DNA of 64,000 nucleotides from Vulcanimicrobiota bacterium (GTDB lineage Bacteria; Vulcanimicrobiota; Vulcanimicrobiia; Vulcanimicrobiales; Vulcanimicrobiaceae): contig OY970223.1 in the NCBI GenBank assembly GCA_963714015.1, forward strand, positions 960,001 through 1,024,000. Direction: 5' to 3'. The notes under the pieces are model-generated. The model made no database searches and had not been told where the DNA came from. It was given only the letters and a program-made list of their open reading frames with translations. Position 1 is the first letter of the stretch. Each line of letters starts with the position of its first letter. Below, in pieces: positions 33,823-40,000 of the stretch. Position numbers and translations under genes: made by a program.

Positions 33823-34380
33823 GTGAAGAACGCCGGCGCATCGGACCTCGAGATCGCGTTCGCGGCGCGCGAGCCGTGGGCGCTCGAGGCGCTGTACGTT
33901 GAGCACGCGCGGACGTTTTACACAGCCGCATTCGCCGTTCTGCGCAACGGCGAAGACGCGCAGGATTGCGTGCATGACGTGCTGCTGCGCATATGGCATA
34001 ATACGTCGGCGTTCACTCCGGGCAAGGGCGCGCTCAAGGCTTTCGTAGCCGTGTGCATTCGAAACGAAGCGGTGAGTCGCGTGCGCTTGCGCGGCCGAGG
34101 ATCGGAACTCGAGCGGCGAATCGTACGCAGAGCTGCGGAACAGCCGCTCCAGGATCCCTTTTCGTCCGTCGATCCGATCGAACGAAATCGTTTGCAACAG
34201 GCGATCGCCGAACTTTCGGAGCCGCAGCGCAGCGTTATCGTTCTTTCGTACTTCAATTGCCTTACCCACCGCGAAATTGCCGAACGTTTAGGCGAACCTA
34301 TCGGCACGATCAAAAGCCGGCTCTCGGCGGCATTGCACCGCCTTTCGGGCCGCCTGAAGAGAGAATACGAGTATGAGTGA
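33823..34380 (+). CDS. ECF sigma factor (SigK-like)
   Basis: DAQDCVHDVLLRIW (region 2); LSYF..LTHREIAERLGEPIGTIKSRL (region 4). Confidence 0.9.
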   Translation: MKNAGASDLEIAFAAREPWALEALYVEHARTFYTAAFAVLRNGEDAQDCVHDVLLRIWHNTSAFTPGKGALKAFVAVCIRNEAVSRVRLRGRGSELERRIVRRAAEQPLQDPFSSVDPIERNRLQQAIAELSEPQRSVIVLSYFNCLTHREIAERLGEPIGTIKSRLSAALHRLSGRLKREYEYE

Positions 34381-35038
34381 AGCCGAAGCACACGTGGCGG
34401 ATCGGGCCGAACTCTATGCCCTTGGTTCGCTCACGCCGGCCGAAACGGCGCAGCTGCGCGCGCACCTCACGCAATGCGAGCGCTGCCGCAGCATTGTAAA
34501 CGATGCCGAGGCGGCGGTAACGGCAATGATTGAAGCGGACGACCAATACGATCCGCCGGGCTCGCTTGGCCGCCGCATAGCGGCTTCCGCGCGCCCACGG
34601 TCGCGCGTGCAGGTGCTGCAGTGGAGCGCTCTAGCGGCTGCGCTGATCCTGTGGATCGGTCCCGCGATGTGGTTCTATACGCATACGCGGCAGCAAGCGG
34701 CAACGCTGAGCACACAGTCCGCCGCCATCGGCGCCTTGCTGCACAGTCATTTCGTCCACGCGCCGTTCTCACCGATCGAGGCGGGGGCGCCTGCCGCGAA
34801 GGTGATCTTCTCGGCAAAGGGCCATTGGTTGTACGTGCTGGTGGCGGCCCCCGCCCGCGATTTGCAAATCGGTACGCTTCGAAACGGACGGCTGCTGATT
34901 CTGGGAAATCCCCAAGACGTTGGCGGATATGCGGCGTTCTACGATACGGCGGCGTCAGGAATCGACAACGTCGTCATCGTTCGCAACGGCCGGGCCGTGG
35001 CTCGCGCGGCAATTGTGCGGCGGAAAGGCGGTGAATGA
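34373..35038 (+). CDS. Membrane anti-sigma factor with zinc-binding HxxxCxxC
   Basis: YALGSL..HLTQCERC, one TM, periplasmic domain; overlaps the sigma gene. Confidence 0.85.
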   Translation: MSEAEAHVADRAELYALGSLTPAETAQLRAHLTQCERCRSIVNDAEAAVTAMIEADDQYDPPGSLGRRIAASARPRSRVQVLQWSALAAALILWIGPAMWFYTHTRQQAATLSTQSAAIGALLHSHFVHAPFSPIEAGAPAAKVIFSAKGHWLYVLVAAPARDLQIGTLRNGRLLILGNPQDVGGYAAFYDTAASGIDNVVIVRNGRAVARAAIVRRKGGE

Positions 35039-35976
35039 TCTCGGAAACCACAATCGATCGTGCGGCCATCGCTTCTGCAGCGCAGGCCCTCGAGCCGTAC
35101 GTGCGCCGCACGCCGGTCATACGCGCGGACGGACGCGACTTCGGGATGTCCGCCGCAGCGGTTCATTTCAAGCTCGAGCAGCTTCAGCACGCGGCCTCGT
35201 TCAAGACTCGGGGTGCTTTCGCCAACCTGCTTTCGAGAGAGGTACCGGAGTGTGGTGTCGTTGCGGCCTCCGGCGGCAATCATGGCGCAGCCGTAGCTTA
35301 CGCCGCAATGGTGCTCGGAATCCCGGCAAAGATTTTTGTCCCCACCGTTTCCTCACCGGTGAAAATCGATCGCATTCGGCGGTATGGTGCGCAGTTGGTC
35401 GTCGGCGGCGATCGGTATGCTGACGCGCTGGCCGCAAGCGAAGAATGGATCGTTCAGTCGGGTGCGTTGCCGGTGCACGCGTTCGACCATCCGCAGACTT
35501 TGATCGGTCAAGGAACGCTGGGCAAAGAATTGGAGGAACAAATTGAGGGGATCGACACGGTTTTGGTTCCGGTCGGCGGCGGAGGATTGATCGGCGGCAT
35601 CGCCGCCTGGTTCTCGGGAGGCGCGCGAATCGTCGGCGTCGAGCCCGAAGGGGCACCGACGCTCACGCATGCGCTTGCCGCCGGTGTGCCGGTCGACGCA
35701 CCAGCTGGGAGCATCGCGAACGATTCGCTCGCGCCGCGGCGCGTCGGTGAATTGATGTTTGAGATCGCTCAGCGCTATGTGGAGCGCACGGTCCTGGTCA
35801 GTGACGACGAGATCGTCGCTGCACAGCACGGACTGTGGCAGAACCTCACCGTCGTTGCCGAGCCGGGAGGCGCCGCTGCCTTCGCAGCCCTTCTTTCCGG
35901 ACGCTACTCCGTGCAAGCCGGCGAGCGCGTGGCTGTAATAGTGAGCGGCGGCAACACACCGGCCGTGTGCTTGTGA
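35035..35976 (+). CDS. PLP-dependent serine/threonine dehydratase family protein
   Basis: KLEQLQHAASFKTRGA, ASGGNHG, VGGGGLIGG, EPGGAAA, SGGN. Confidence 0.88.
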   Translation: MISETTIDRAAIASAAQALEPYVRRTPVIRADGRDFGMSAAAVHFKLEQLQHAASFKTRGAFANLLSREVPECGVVAASGGNHGAAVAYAAMVLGIPAKIFVPTVSSPVKIDRIRRYGAQLVVGGDRYADALAASEEWIVQSGALPVHAFDHPQTLIGQGTLGKELEEQIEGIDTVLVPVGGGGLIGGIAAWFSGGARIVGVEPEGAPTLTHALAAGVPVDAPAGSIANDSLAPRRVGELMFEIAQRYVERTVLVSDDEIVAAQHGLWQNLTVVAEPGGAAAFAALLSGRYSVQAGERVAVIVSGGNTPAVCL

Positions 35977-36020
35977 CGCGGCGCTCCTCTGGGTAAAGAA
36001 TTGCCGGAGGATCCATTGCT

Positions 36021-36401
36021 ATGATTCAACTTCTTAGAACCCTCGCATTTGCCGTCGCGGGAATAATCGCCGCAACGGCCGCACTTCCCGCATCGGCGCA
36101 AAATAGCGGTCCGGGCAACGGTCCGCCCGGCGGAAAGTACCGTGATTGTCACGGATACGTGCGCCATGTTTCACTCGAGAACGTGCGCGTTCACTGCATC
36201 GACGGAACGCCGGCGGACATATCGTTCTTATCCTGGCCCAAGTTCGTCAGTCTTCCGACCGGCAAGACGATGGAATCCAAAGATCTCAAGCCGGGCACGC
36301 CGGTCCACGTGGTCTTTACGCAGTCATTAGGTATCCGGCACGCGTACAAAGTGTACGTAGCCAATCCGAACGGGCACGGCCTGTACGGCTTTAAGACCTA
36401 G
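36021..36401 (+). CDS. Small secreted hypothetical protein
   Basis: Signal peptide ..ASAQ, GGAGG RBS, beta-rich with two Cys. Confidence 0.7.
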   Translation: MIQLLRTLAFAVAGIIAATAALPASAQNSGPGNGPPGGKYRDCHGYVRHVSLENVRVHCIDGTPADISFLSWPKFVSLPTGKTMESKDLKPGTPVHVVFTQSLGIRHAYKVYVANPNGHGLYGFKT

Positions 36402-36420
36402 ACCGTAATCTACAGCGATC

Positions 36421-36449
36421 GAAAGCGGCGGCCGAAGGCTGCCGCTTTC
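36421..36449 (+). terminator. Hairpin terminator
   Basis: GAAAGCGGCGGCC-GAA-GGCTGCCGCTTTC. Confidence 0.7.
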
Positions 36450-36573
36450 GTGCGCGCGCCCGGCGGCGGTTGAAGCGGCACGCAAGGTCCACCCGGCGTT
36501 CCGGCAGAGTAATCCGGCAAGCTAAGCAAGCGCTTCCGCCCGATCGATCTCAAAAGGTTGCTCTGCGGTCGCC

Positions 36574-37243
36574 GTGAAGGGACGTATCGTGCGCGCCCCG
36601 GGGAGACTGCCCAAGCCGCTTTCTTTAGTCGTGGAGGCGATTTTCTGTGCCGCCGCGATAGCGAGCGTGTGCGCTCACTTTGCCATCGATGTCATCGGCG
36701 ATTTTGCGCTTCGGCACGATAGTCTATGACGACATGGTCCACGATTCTCGCGAAGTCGTTGCACTGATTGCGATCTTGATCGCGGTCGTGCTCTTCTCTC
36801 GCGTGCTTCGCGCCTGTTGCGAAAGAGCCGCGGCCGGCAGCAAGCAGGCTGTAACAATTCTCCCAGGCGCTCGCTTCGCCGTCTTGTTTACCGCTGCAGT
36901 AAGCGCGCTTTCCTGTGGCATCGTTCCGCTGATGGAGTGCTTCGACGGCGCCCTGAACGGCGCAAGCATGCCGGAATTGGCGGATGCGTTCGGGGGTTCG
37001 CTGGTGTTGGGACTCGGAACGACGATAGTTTGCGCGGCGATCGTCGCGTTGGCAGTCGTTGTCGCGGCGCGCTGGCTGCTCTCGCATCGGCACACTATCG
37101 CGACCCTACTCGAGACGCTTCTGCAGATAGATCGCGGACGCTCTCCCGAGCCGCGTTTCATTCACTGCACGCTCGATTTTGCCGCTTCTCATCGGCTCGC
37201 GCTGCTCGCGGTTCATGGATCGAAGCGCGGGCCGCCGCTCTAA
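36574..37243 (+). CDS. Multi-TM protein with His/Asp-rich loop and C-terminal RGPP motif (apparent frameshift ~36722)
   Basis: GTG 36574 frame reads ..CAHFAIDVIGDFALRHDS and joins YDDMVHDSRE of ORF 36680..37243, which ends SKRGPPL*. Confidence 0.65.
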
Positions 37244-37291
37244 GCACGTAAGCTCCTCTCTCGTTCACCCAAGTCGTGCCTGGAGACTCAC

Positions 37292-40000
37292 ATGCTATGC
37301 CTTCGTGCATCGCGTGCGCTTTGTGCGCTTGCGATCGCGCTCCTTTCTACGGTTCCGGCGCAGGCCGAACCGCGTTTATCCGGTGGCAGCATAACGGGCG
37401 TCGTCGACGACGCAGCCACCGGCCTTCCCGTTCCCAACGTGGACGTCGGCGTTATTCATGCGAACGTTTCGGTTCACACGGACGCGGCGGGCCGATTTGT
37501 CATTCCGACTGTCCATGAGGGAACGTATCGCGTCAACTTGACGCGCGACGGATATCAGCCGGCTGTATCGGAGCCCATCGCCGTGGACGACTCGCCCGTC
37601 GAGGTTACGCTGACGATTCAGCGCGCCGCCTCGGATCTGCACGTGATCGCCGTGACGACTGCCCGAGCGAAAGATGCGCTTCAGCAGTCGAGCACTTTCA
37701 CCAAAACGCTCAATTCTGAGGAGCTGCAACAAGAGGGCATCGTTCGGGCTGCAGACGCGCTGCGCACACTGCCGGGCGTCAACAACGGCATTACCGGAGA
37801 TACGGCCGCGCTTTCCGACGACGTGCAACTCAGTCTTCGCGGTATCGGCACGCTCGAGACGGAAGCGGCGATTGACGGCCATCCGATCGCGTACGGTATA
37901 AAAGACGGCTTCAACTATCAGCTCTCGCCCGTCTTTCCTTACCGCGACATCTCGGTGCTTTACGGCTCCGGCGGGAGCGATTTGATGGGAGTCAACGCCA
38001 TCGGAGGAGTCGTCAATTTTCAAACGCTCGATCCGACGCCCGTCAGCGCAGTAAACGTTACGCAAGGGTACGGAACGTTCGACCAGCTCTCTACGAGCAT
38101 CACTGCGACCGGCACGGCGAATAAGCTCGGATATGCCGCTGCGTACGGCGTAGCGGGCCTCGACGGCCCGTTCAACGACGCGACGTTCTATCAAGCGGGA
38201 GCAGCGTTTGACCAGTCTGTGCCCTCCGGACCAATCCACGATCTCGGTGTGTATTCCGACGACTCCGGAGAAACGACGCGCGCGGGACTGTTGAAGCTTC
38301 AGTACAACTTCTCGCCAAGCAGCAACGTGACGTTTGCCTCCGTGGACGAAAATCGTTGGGTCAACAAAGCCGGCAACGGCGACGGCGATTATCTGGGGTA
38401 TGCGCCGGCGCTCGCTTTCGGCAATCTGCTTCTTTCCCAGTACAACCCGGAAAATTATCCGCGGCTTCCCGCTTGCCCGAAAGGAACATTCGCCGGTACG
38501 AACGCGAACGGCAGTCCTAACGGCTACGGACCGAATGGACAGCCTGACGGCGGAGTAACGTGCCAAACTCCGCAGCAGTATGCGCAGTTCAATACCGGCT
38601 GGGACGGAGCCGGAGCGTCATGGCAATCGCTCAAGCTGTTCGACAACTCCGTCGACTATCGTCTCTCCACTCAGCGCTCGGCGATACGGCTCGGCGTATT
38701 CGACAGTTATTATGAAAACTTGGTGGATAGAACGTTCATGCTGCCTTTCTTCAGCACACCCGGAGATGCCGGATCGTGGCAGAACTTCGGCGTCAACGAA
38801 GCGGGAACAATTGCCAGCGACGATCTCGTCGGCAGAAACAACGACTTCGAATTTGGAACGTCATACCTAAACAACGCTTACTTCACGTACGTCAAGAATG
38901 CGCTGAAGGGATCGCCCTTCGTCACCGAAACGGCCTATTTCATCCGCGACGCATTTCGCCCGCAAGCCTCGCCGCTCTCGGCGTACTTGAACCTATGGGC
39001 AAAGCACTCAACTGCGACGAATACTTCGTATCTCGACTCGCGGCTGGCTGCCGTATACCGTTTGAACTCGCGCAACATTCTGCGCGCCTCCGCCGGATCG
39101 ACGACGACGCAGCCCAGTCAAAACATGCTGGACCAGCAATTCATCGAATCGGCGCCCGGCGGAGCGGGCGGCGGCACGCCAATCGGCTGCGGGAGTCTCA
39201 ACTCAGTCGGAAGCGCTCCATCGACGACGTTGAAACCGGAAGAAGGCGTTGACGAAGATCTGGCTTACACGCACCGCTGGCAGGGTGATTCGCAGACCGA
39301 ACTTACCTTGTACAACACGAACGTTTACGATAAGCTCTATTCGACCACGGTTCCGCTTTCCTCGATCGGAACAGGCTTTATTCCGCCGGCGTACTTGACG
39401 CAAGTCGAAGCGGCGATCGCCGGCAAGTGCGGTACCGCCGGCGCGTTCGACCTGCTCGGAGTGACGGGCAATGCGAACGTCGGGACGCTTCGCGCAGAAG
39501 GAATCGATCTCAGCGGCCGCGCCCGAATCAGCCGTCCATTCTATTTGGACTACGACTGGACGCTGACTTCTACGGCCTTGATAAATGCCAATCAGCAGCT
39601 GCTTCAGAACAACCTCACTTACGTCATCGGCAGTCAGCTTCCGCATCTACCTCTCCACACGTTCTCTGCCGCAGCGGACTACACGTTCGTAAACGGCGTC
39701 GACGCTAGATACATGCTATATACGGTTTCAGCGGGCAACACCAAATCGCTTCCGGCGTATGACTACTCCGATCTAAGCCTTTCGGCACCCGTCGGGCGGG
39801 GTGCGAAGCTGACTGCTATGGTTCAAAATCTGTTCAACCAATGGGGAAGCATCGCCGGTTTGCGTTACGAAGGCGTGCCCTTGGCGCTCAACAGCTACGC
39901 TGCGCCGAGTGCATATGCTCCCTATACCGGAGCAGATGCAACGGAGCAGTTTGGACTGCCGTACCGCAGCGTGTACTTCAGCCTCTCAATAACGCGGTAA
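37292..40000 (+). CDS. TonB-dependent receptor
   Basis: Signal peptide, GSITGVVDD..PVPNVDV, plug ALRTLPGV..LRG..IDGHP..AIGGVVNFQT, LKPEEG, VQNLFN, last strand RSVYFSLSITR. Confidence 0.88.
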   Translation: MLCLRASRALCALAIALLSTVPAQAEPRLSGGSITGVVDDAATGLPVPNVDVGVIHANVSVHTDAAGRFVIPTVHEGTYRVNLTRDGYQPAVSEPIAVDDSPVEVTLTIQRAASDLHVIAVTTARAKDALQQSSTFTKTLNSEELQQEGIVRAADALRTLPGVNNGITGDTAALSDDVQLSLRGIGTLETEAAIDGHPIAYGIKDGFNYQLSPVFPYRDISVLYGSGGSDLMGVNAIGGVVNFQTLDPTPVSAVNVTQGYGTFDQLSTSITATGTANKLGYAAAYGVAGLDGPFNDATFYQAGAAFDQSVPSGPIHDLGVYSDDSGETTRAGLLKLQYNFSPSSNVTFASVDENRWVNKAGNGDGDYLGYAPALAFGNLLLSQYNPENYPRLPACPKGTFAGTNANGSPNGYGPNGQPDGGVTCQTPQQYAQFNTGWDGAGASWQSLKLFDNSVDYRLSTQRSAIRLGVFDSYYENLVDRTFMLPFFSTPGDAGSWQNFGVNEAGTIASDDLVGRNNDFEFGTSYLNNAYFTYVKNALKGSPFVTETAYFIRDAFRPQASPLSAYLNLWAKHSTATNTSYLDSRLAAVYRLNSRNILRASAGSTTTQPSQNMLDQQFIESAPGGAGGGTPIGCGSLNSVGSAPSTTLKPEEGVDEDLAYTHRWQGDSQTELTLYNTNVYDKLYSTTVPLSSIGTGFIPPAYLTQVEAAIAGKCGTAGAFDLLGVTGNANVGTLRAEGIDLSGRARISRPFYLDYDWTLTSTALINANQQLLQNNLTYVIGSQLPHLPLHTFSAAADYTFVNGVDARYMLYTVSAGNTKSLPAYDYSDLSLSAPVGRGAKLTAMVQNLFNQWGSIAGLRYEGVPLALNSYAAPSAYAPYTGADATEQFGLPYRSVYFSLSITR

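Follow-up and report, generated by a model that had tools for sequence, protein, structure and literature searches.

In Bordetella pertussis, the TonB-dependent transporter gene bfrG is preceded by a copper-responsive upstream open reading frame (uORF) encoding CruR (Bp2923, DUF2946/PF11162), whose RAPP-dependent ribosome stall prevents Rho termination and is relieved by copper (Roy et al., 2022, PMC9426467). A survey of 52,895 GTDB genomes found RAPP and RGPP uORFs enriched before TonB-dependent receptor genes, with 5450 RAPP uORFs before 'TonB-dependent receptor' in its source table, and reported that almost all uORFs in this position carry a signal sequence (Fujiwara et al., 2025, PMC12992588). 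The same study describes RAPP/RGPP arrest as robust and resistant to EF-P, and shows it for CruR and for seven proteins of Streptomyces, including four that have four transmembrane (TM) helices.

Here we analyze a 64,000-nt stretch of a Vulcanimicrobiota genome (assembly GCA_963714015.1, contig OY970223.1, positions 960,001 to 1,024,000 of the forward strand; hereafter the window), in which the gene for a predicted four-TM protein ending in KRGPPL lies directly upstream of a TonB-dependent receptor (TBDR) gene. The original prediction for this locus, made from the sequence alone, held that the protein is an undescribed, ligand- or membrane-insertion-sensing arrest peptide that controls receptor expression, perhaps in response to a metal other than copper. 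We consider it likely that the ~215-amino-acid (aa) inner-membrane protein is a cis-regulatory arrest leader of the RAPP/RGPP type, on which a stalled ribosome would unmask the ribosome binding site of the TBDR gene and whose membrane domain would set the release of the stall. The comparative analyses below support the core of the original prediction, an arrest-type leader governing the receptor, so that as a whole it is partly supported; its suggestions of ligand sensing, insertion sensing and a metal other than copper are conjecture. The word 'undescribed' fits the protein family and does not extend to the mode of regulation, since RAPP/RGPP uORFs before TBDR genes and four-TM arrest proteins are both in print (PMC9426467; PMC12992588). 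The regulator class is thus already published, and the polytopic, receptor-linked protein family is what appears to be new.

A membrane protein family with a conserved R[AG]PP end

The window protein used as a query retrieved 16 homologs of 155-281 aa, and a profile built from 33 sequences of the family, whose typical length is ~215 aa, retrieved 484 cluster representatives at E<=0.001 and 168 at E<=1e-30 among 1.84 billion proteins. The R[AG]PP motif is present in 161 of 164 family proteins, 93 times as RGPP and 68 times as RAPP; the other three are two truncated proteins and one aligned over part of its length. Such conservation goes far beyond chance. Of the 161, 106 have a lysine before the motif arginine. 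Between the second proline and the stop codon lie a median of 5 aa, usually 3-10; this tail is unconstrained (1-123 aa) and in some loci continues, out of frame, into the receptor gene. Membrane domain and motif are separated by a distance that is fixed within ~2 residues: the spacing from a conserved GGS to the motif arginine is 76-79 aa in 141 proteins, and that from HxxID to the arginine is 181-186 aa in 132. Of the features that delimit RAPP/RGPP arrest leaders in PMC12992588, a C-terminal R-A/G-P-P, a membrane protein of fewer than 300 aa and a co-directional downstream gene nearby are found here, and arrest that depends on the motif arginine is predicted. No single N-terminal signal peptide was identified; the family instead has four TM helices, and the two ends of the protein are predicted to lie in the cytoplasm.

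An AlphaFold2 model of a 215-aa homolog (P0003) has a mean predicted local distance difference test score (pLDDT) of 81.8 and places helices at residues 2-34, 46-76, 88-116, 132-159 and 161-176, with pLDDT falling to ~55 over residues ~177-215. Mean net charges over 31 members are -3.3 for loop 1 and -2.4 for loop 3, compared with +2.8 for loop 2, +2.1 for the helix after TM4 and +5.7 for the tail. Together, the model and the positive-inside charge counts predict four TM helices with both the N- and C-terminus inside. The nearly invariant positions (P0003 numbering) are H24, I27, D28, D32, D38, Y40, D41, H45, S47, R48, M109, D113, G129-G130-S131, L134, G135, R207, P209 and P210, and those from H24 to S131 map to loops 1 and 3, to the half of TM1 nearer the outside or to the outward end of TM3. 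The model thus predicts an outward-facing set of conserved His, Asp, Tyr and Met residues, which may bind a ligand.

TM4 is followed by a helix of 18 residues and then by a basic disordered tail of ~30 residues. The disordered basic segment between this helix and the second proline of the motif measures 30-35 residues, about the length of the ribosomal exit tunnel; on arrest, the entire membrane domain would already have left the ribosome. The four TM helices, the His/Asp cluster (HFAID..D..HDSYDD..HDSRE and MECFD) and the hydrophilic tail named in the original prediction are real and conserved across the family, as are the terminal motif and its distance from the membrane domain; the hydrophilic spacer had been put at ~45 aa and is ~50 aa from the end of TM4 to RGPP.

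The family alignment has no conserved Cys column and no conserved CXXC, and none of the 33 family members scanned at E<=0.01 matched a DUF model, DUF2946 (PF11162) included, in agreement with the proposal that the protein lacks the CXXC of DUF2946. A Cys-Cys pair in the predicted cytoplasmic loop 2 (RACCER, window 36809-36814; LR.CCE) is kept only in the subgroup of the window protein (P0002-P0011, L002, L026-L029) and could be a subgroup-specific cytoplasmic thiol site. The two window pieces searched against Pfam at E<=0.1 returned nothing beyond a sub-threshold DUF3487 match, no NCBIfam model matches the family, and a Foldseek search of the PDB returned only generic four-helix bundles, none of them at E<=0.001. 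Our literature searches found no description of a polytopic, His/Asp-rich, receptor-linked family of this kind, an absence that such searches do not prove.

Members with a named source are all 'hypothetical protein' entries from Eremiobacterota-type metagenome-assembled genomes (MAGs; Candidatus Eremiobacteraeota, Baltobacteraceae, Cybelea), and a few MAG labels name other phyla. The ESM Atlas likewise holds unnamed 'hypothetical protein' clusters, most often from Vulcanimicrobiota, with one cluster labelled Actinomycetota (7 records). A phylum-wide genome search found family matches in 84 of 201 genomes, at 1-4 copies per genome, confined to three families of one class (72/113, 2/3 and 9/15 genomes) and absent from the other 18 families (0/69). 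The protein family is so far known from one class of Eremiobacterota. No Eremiobacterota names occur in the supplements of PMC12992588, of which all files but one were searched; family members may be counted in its uORF table under accession numbers.

Linkage to TonB-dependent receptors

The expected transporter linkage was recovered across the family. At 20 loci from more than a dozen genera, 20 of 21 downstream open reading frames are same-strand receptors with CarboxypepD_reg and Plug domains directly downstream of the leader; the exception belongs to a weak family match with an SCO1/SenC gene ~1 kb away. This weak member (L045, G019:C71) ends in GLRAPPSPQS and has the SCO1/SenC gene, of copper chaperone type, ~1 kb downstream and no TonB-dependent receptor. 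Of 38 loci, 26 have 51-60 nt between the end of RxPP and the Shine-Dalgarno (SD)-preceded receptor start, and the remaining 12 have 65-103 nt.

Leader and receptor distances are correlated (Mantel r 0.35, reached by 0 of 2000 permutations), and in 9 of 18 loci the leader and the receptor have the same nearest neighbor. Where one genome has paralogous modules, these are old, with leader distances of 0.53-0.72 and receptor distances of 0.71-0.79. Several genomes have leader genes ~3.2 kb apart on one strand (G191:C2:345008 and 348246; G120:C2:7664 and 10899), a recurrence that indicates tandem leader and receptor arrays in which each receptor has its own RxPP leader. Since the genes farther upstream or downstream differ between loci, the conserved unit is a two-gene cassette. 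At the loci L046-L065, from a genus in which 44 of 44 genomes are positive, the leader is preceded by a conserved gene for a ~135-aa secreted protein (ending in VKWAGGT.WIAPSH) and then by a GC-rich hairpin.

In the window, the receptor matches Plug (E 4.8e-11) and CarboxypepD_reg (E 2.5e-12) in Pfam; its barrel falls below the Pfam listing, but PF00593 does match orthologous and paralogous receptors. The genome has 13 Plug-domain genes including this one, and none of the other 12 is preceded by an RxPP leader. Across this genome, 25 open frames of at least 80 aa have R[AG]PP within 12 aa of the stop; the window leader is the only credible one, and eight other frames that we examined look like Arg-rich wrong-frame products.

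Complementarity between the motif codons and the ribosome binding site of the receptor gene

For the RNA analyses, we assumed that ribosomes stall with both Pro codons in the P and A sites, as in the CruR toeprints (PMC12992588), and compared the footprint segment, from the second RxPP codon through +12 nt, with the ribosome binding site of the receptor gene from -20 to +3 at 38 loci. The mean duplex energy of native pairs was -14.8 kcal/mol against -11.5 kcal/mol for cross-locus pairs, and 0 of 5000 permutations reached the native mean. The window duplex has -14.4 kcal/mol, compared with a mean of -10.3 for the window segment against the binding sites of other loci, and 5% of cross pairs are as good. 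At many loci, the Pro codons themselves (CCUCC) form the anti-SD arm. The RGPP codons of L046-L065 are mostly CGC GGA CCU CCU, in which the Pro codons spell the anti-SD sequence CCUCC.

On a 22-row alignment, the helix between columns 11-19 and 59-67, which were chosen from one aligned row among related rows, has 72.7% of cells paired, compared with 65.8% in shuffles (0/500 as high) and 39-50% in slid controls, and 5 of its 9 pairs change on both sides. When the footprint was forced to be single-stranded, the unpaired fraction of the binding site rose from 0.40 to 0.54 over 18 loci, compared with 0.41 for an upstream control footprint.

The sequence features that the original prediction had read from the window are all at the positions it gave: KRGPPL with its stop (AAG CGC GGG CCG CCG CTC TAA, 37223-37243), GCACG at 37244-37248, CGTGC at 37275-37279, GGAGA at 37282-37286, the receptor ATG at 37292, and the 48-nt spacer (37244-37291) between leader stop and ATG. 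The proposed GCACG/CGTGC pairing belongs to a longer, interrupted helix of 10 bp that covers the SD, CUCUA.GCACG with CGUGC.UGGAG (Table 1). By analogy with the CruR toeprints, the two Pro codons would occupy the P and A sites, in that order, and a ribosome stalled on RGPP in this assumed placement would have the 5' arm of the helix within its footprint.

Table 1. Positions in the window of the leader gene, the candidate RNA elements and the receptor gene.
Feature	Positions	Strand	Description
N-terminal leader piece	36574..36723	+	Frame 1, GTG start; short basic N-terminus, TM1 and first half of predicted outward-facing loop; AHFAIDVIGDFALRHDS
Extra base C	36724	+	Frame shift between the Ser (AGT) and Tyr (TAT) codons, from homolog alignment and profile matches
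C-terminal leader piece	36725..37243	+	Frame 2; rest of loop 1 (YDDMVHDSRE) through KRGPPL and stop
RGPP codons CGC GGG CCG CCG	37226..37237	+	Predicted arrest site, from sequence and family conservation
5' arm of candidate SD-masking helix, CUCUA.GCACG	37238..37248	+	Within ~10 nt of the A site; includes the TAA stop
Second anti-SD tract, AGCUCC	37251..37256	+	Beyond the stalled-ribosome footprint; SD partner in the minimum-energy fold
3' arm of candidate helix, CGUGC.UGGAG	37275..37285	+	Overlaps receptor Shine-Dalgarno GGAGA (37282-86)
TBDR gene, 902 aa	37292..40000	+	Signal peptide, CarboxypepD_reg, Plug, barrel

Frameshift in the window copy

The ~220-aa protein of the original prediction is real once two frames are joined; as assembled, it is split by the extra base C36724. 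Frame 1 runs from GTG 36574 to TGA 36729 and encodes 51 aa ending in AHFAIDVIGDFALRHDSL, its coding part up to 36723 ending in RHDS and being followed by CTA TGA at 36724-36729. Frame 2 is open from 36680 to the stop at 37241-37243 and ends in HGSKRGPPL. On homologs without the interruption, which read HDSYD at the junction, the two pieces (36574-36723 and 36725-37240) align end to end. The first piece aligns to homolog residues 1-39 and matches profile hidden Markov model positions 4-40 in its own frame, and the phylum-wide profile search splits the window copy into two matches, one per frame. After the rest of loop 1, the second piece continues in order through TM2, the basic loop 2, TM3, the predicted outward loop 3 (PLMECFDG...ADAFGGS) and TM4 to the post-TM helix, the basic tail, KRGPPL and the stop.

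We think that C36724 is probably an assembly error rather than the mark of a pseudogene. The assembly is a single 3.56-Mb contig with an estimated completeness of 89.6%, and its rpoC is interrupted by a break within Rpb1 domain 4 that leaves two overlapping frames of 779 and 535 aa (G000:C1 ~2,063,441-2,067,272; L067 5442-7781 and 7666-9273), whereas relatives with rpoC away from a contig end have open frames of 1229-1307 aa. A broken rpoC and 89.6% completeness in one contig make indel errors in the assembly likely, and other 'frameshifts' in this genome are therefore to be read with care. Among public reads, contigs from two soil-metagenome DNA runs (8% of sampled words) cover 36454-36604 and 37357-37500 and not position 36724, and the public-run search for the stretch had no RNA run among its matches.

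It is doubtful, in our judgment, that the 1-nt insertion is real and the element in this genome a decayed remnant, one that yields only the 51-aa peptide or a 169-aa three-TM fragment re-initiated at ATG 36734 and no longer controls the receptor, or controls it differently. Such decay would describe the state of one copy and is compatible with the other explanations considered below. Beyond the broken frame itself, it is favored by the rarity of such breaks (among the matches listed phylum-wide, only the window copy is split over two frames, and an internal stop occurs only in the window copy, G026 and G201) and by the lack of a match to the window protein in two same-genus genomes searched, from which the module appears dispensable in this lineage. 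Against decay stand the split of the essential rpoC in the same error-prone, single-contig assembly and the state of the sequence 3' of the break, where reading frame, RGPP, SD helix and 902-aa receptor are all intact.

Programmed frameshifting at 36724 was also considered and rejected: there is no slippery sequence, and homologs are uninterrupted.

Proposed mechanism and alternatives

Precedent, together with the conservation, geometry and RNA complementarity described above, leads us to infer arrest, SD unmasking and ligand-dependent release. A ribosome reaching RxPP would stall, by analogy with other RAPP/RGPP proteins. At that point the four-TM bundle would already be inserted, with the disordered tail filling the exit tunnel and the post-TM4 helix at its exit, and the ribosome would keep the RxPP codons and the next ~10 nt single-stranded. 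In free mRNA these nucleotides are predicted to pair with the SD region of the receptor gene, so that the stall would expose the site and the receptor would be translated. Once the stall was released, the ribosome would terminate a few codons later, the helix would re-form and receptor synthesis would fall. Release may come from a pull or a fold change transmitted from the membrane domain through TM4, for which ligand binding at the outward-facing His/Asp/Met cluster would be the most plausible trigger. A CruR-like block of Rho-dependent termination may act in addition or instead.

A more specific proposal, which we put forward only tentatively, is that the protein is a four-TM co-translational transmembrane sensor that reads a periplasmic ligand, perhaps the receptor cargo or a metal, at the His/Asp/Tyr/Met site and releases the RxPP arrest. 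The signal would pass via TM4 and the post-TM helix to arrest codons that double as the anti-SD arm, and periplasmic nutrient status would gate transporter translation without a transcription factor, a sigma/anti-sigma pair or a riboswitch.

Several observations weigh against SD unmasking by an arrest leader or against parts of it, in addition to the way in which the helix columns were chosen, the frameshift in the window gene as assembled and the absence of matches from the two same-genus genomes. Ensemble folding of the window found no SD unmasking (0.45 free, 0.47 stalled, delta 0.01, like shuffles), because AGCUCC at 37251-37256 can mask the SD from outside the footprint. Only ~8 of the first 20 loci have a clear gain in unmasking, and mean masking of the binding site in these 20 is 0.39, hardly different from the 0.43 of shuffles. 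RNAalifold found no consensus structure among 22 segments from arrest site to start, since the anti-SD arm sits in a different register from locus to locus, and at some loci (L031, L044, L049 and L053) the native duplexes are no better than cross-locus ones. The strength of arrest also depends on the species of ribosome, most Streptomyces peptides being produced mainly at full length with E. coli ribosomes (PMC12992588). As for the sensor, the spatial clustering of its conserved residues comes from the predicted topology only, and no substrate-specific NCBIfam model scores above its cut-off on the window receptor.

The folding result in the window also counts in favor of a CruR-like output of the same arrest leader, an alternative we regard as unlikely. 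A Rho-utilization site in the 3' end of the leader and the spacer would be blocked by the stalled ribosome, allowing transcription to enter the receptor gene, and release would lead to Rho termination, with SD masking secondary or absent. The spacer is C-rich and G-poor in 20 of 20 loci, with a mean (C-G)/(C+G) of +0.30 and a window value of +0.43 (38% C, 15% G), and C exceeds G most strongly between -80 and +40 nt relative to the end of RxPP (mean C-minus-G of +0.10 to +0.16, compared with ~0.02 elsewhere), a pattern resembling the 'C>G bubble' of cruR (PMC9426467); a rho gene is present in the window genome. However, this C-richness is partly expected from the anti-SD tract and the Pro codons, the spacers are short (51-60 nt in 26/38 loci) next to the 162-bp intergenic region in Bordetella (PMC9426467), and a pure Rho model does not predict the locus-specific complementarity to the binding site. 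Rho-dependent control differs from SD unmasking in the output step only, and both may act together.

Dispensing with arrest altogether, the protein could be an ordinary inner-membrane partner of the receptor, with an accessory or uptake role, gene order reflecting co-expression, R[AG]PP serving as a docking motif and any pausing incidental. The well-conserved membrane domain and its confidently modelled four-helix bundle favor such a role, as does the co-divergence of leader and receptor, which functional partners would show. We nevertheless find this quite improbable, since a protein function does not readily account for an invariant motif at a fixed distance from the last TM helix, in a disordered basic tail of about tunnel length. 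Moreover, what follows RxPP is free in both sequence and length (1-123 aa), the mRNA at the motif co-varies with the ribosome binding site of the receptor gene, and the fold has no significant match in the PDB.

A membrane-insertion monitor of the MifM type is rated unlikely, on regulatory logic only.

Upstream neighborhood of the leader gene

Over 35900-37500 of the window, Rfam identified no riboswitch, only two sub-threshold chance matches (STnc250, E 0.29; hammerhead, E 0.81). In the same interval, a scan found 0 sigma-70-like promoters, an outcome that is uninformative for this phylum, and two terminator-like sites, not above shuffles. A near-perfect GC-rich hairpin (GAAAGCGGCGGCC GAAG GCTGCCGCTTTC) lies at 36420-36450, 3' of the upstream gene; the terminator scan missed it because it has no T-run, and the STnc250 match that overlaps it is probably due to chance. 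Its position after the upstream gene suggests that the leader gene starts its own transcription unit.

Farther upstream, at 33823-35038 and 1.5 kb from the leader, an extracytoplasmic function sigma factor gene (Sigma70_r2, r4_2) overlaps by 4 nt the gene for a zf-HC2 anti-sigma factor. Between the anti-sigma gene and the leader are genes for a pyridoxal phosphate-dependent serine/threonine dehydratase (35035-35976) and for a 126-aa secreted protein without a family match (36021-36401). This gene order is not kept at homologous loci.

Significance

If the proposed regulation is real, control by RAPP/RGPP arrest reaches an uncultivated soil phylum and makes use of a new sensor module, a full four-TM protein with ligand-like conserved residues facing the periplasm. 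The one characterized receptor-linked case, CruR, is proposed to sense copper in the cytoplasm (PMC9426467), and the family described here would thus make co-translational signaling across a membrane directly testable, in a compact and portable two-gene cassette suited to studying how a membrane domain releases ribosomal arrest. The analysis also flags an unannotated family of 484 cluster representatives as candidate regulatory leaders and offers a handle on what the associated Eremiobacterota receptors import.

Comparison with known arrest systems

The closest characterized system is CruR. In both cases a small protein has a localization signal and a RAPP-type motif a few residues before its stop, and its gene immediately precedes, in the same orientation, that of a TonB-dependent transporter; both also have a fixed spacing from the sensor, or candidate sensor, to the motif (45 residues from CXXC to RAPP in CruR; 76-79 from GGS to the motif arginine here) and a C-rich 3' region of the leader (PMC9426467). 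Unlike CruR, the family has no sequence relationship to DUF2946 and no conserved CXXC; in place of a signal peptide it has four TM helices, and its candidate ligand residues are outward His, Asp, Tyr and Met. The spacer is ~50 nt here compared with 162 bp, and the RNA evidence points to SD masking rather than to the Rho-dependent termination described for CruR (PMC9426467). The family occurs in Eremiobacterota, whereas DUF2946 is mostly found in Proteobacteria.

With the Streptomyces arrest proteins, the family shares the C-terminal R[AG]PP core, a length below 300 aa, membrane localization and a co-directional downstream gene (PMC12992588). SLIV_33595 and SLIV_33605 likewise have four TM helices followed by a conserved stretch of ~20 residues after TM4, and SLIV_18480 likewise has conserved His and Met as candidate metal ligands (PMC12992588). 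We set the family beside the four-TM proteins by their published descriptions, not by sequence, and arrest in the family is a prediction. The genes downstream of the four-TM Streptomyces proteins are copper- or metal-related, thioredoxin-type or ECF sigma genes, not receptors; almost all uORFs before TBDR genes encode a signal sequence (PMC12992588), whereas the window family is polytopic.

The proposed output and release also have counterparts in SecM, MifM and VemP: the stalled ribosome would open an mRNA helix that masks the binding site of the next gene, and the stall would be released through a mechanical pull on the nascent chain. These three proteins are monitoring substrates of the Sec/YidC machinery, and the C-terminal end of SecM carries the related motif RAGP. 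In the present family, unlike in these systems and in ApdA, the downstream gene encodes an outer-membrane transporter instead of a Sec or YidC component, and there would be little sense in regulating a nutrient receptor by insertion capacity. The family further differs from SecM, MifM and VemP in that the leader is a full four-TM protein with a conserved polar cluster predicted to face outward.

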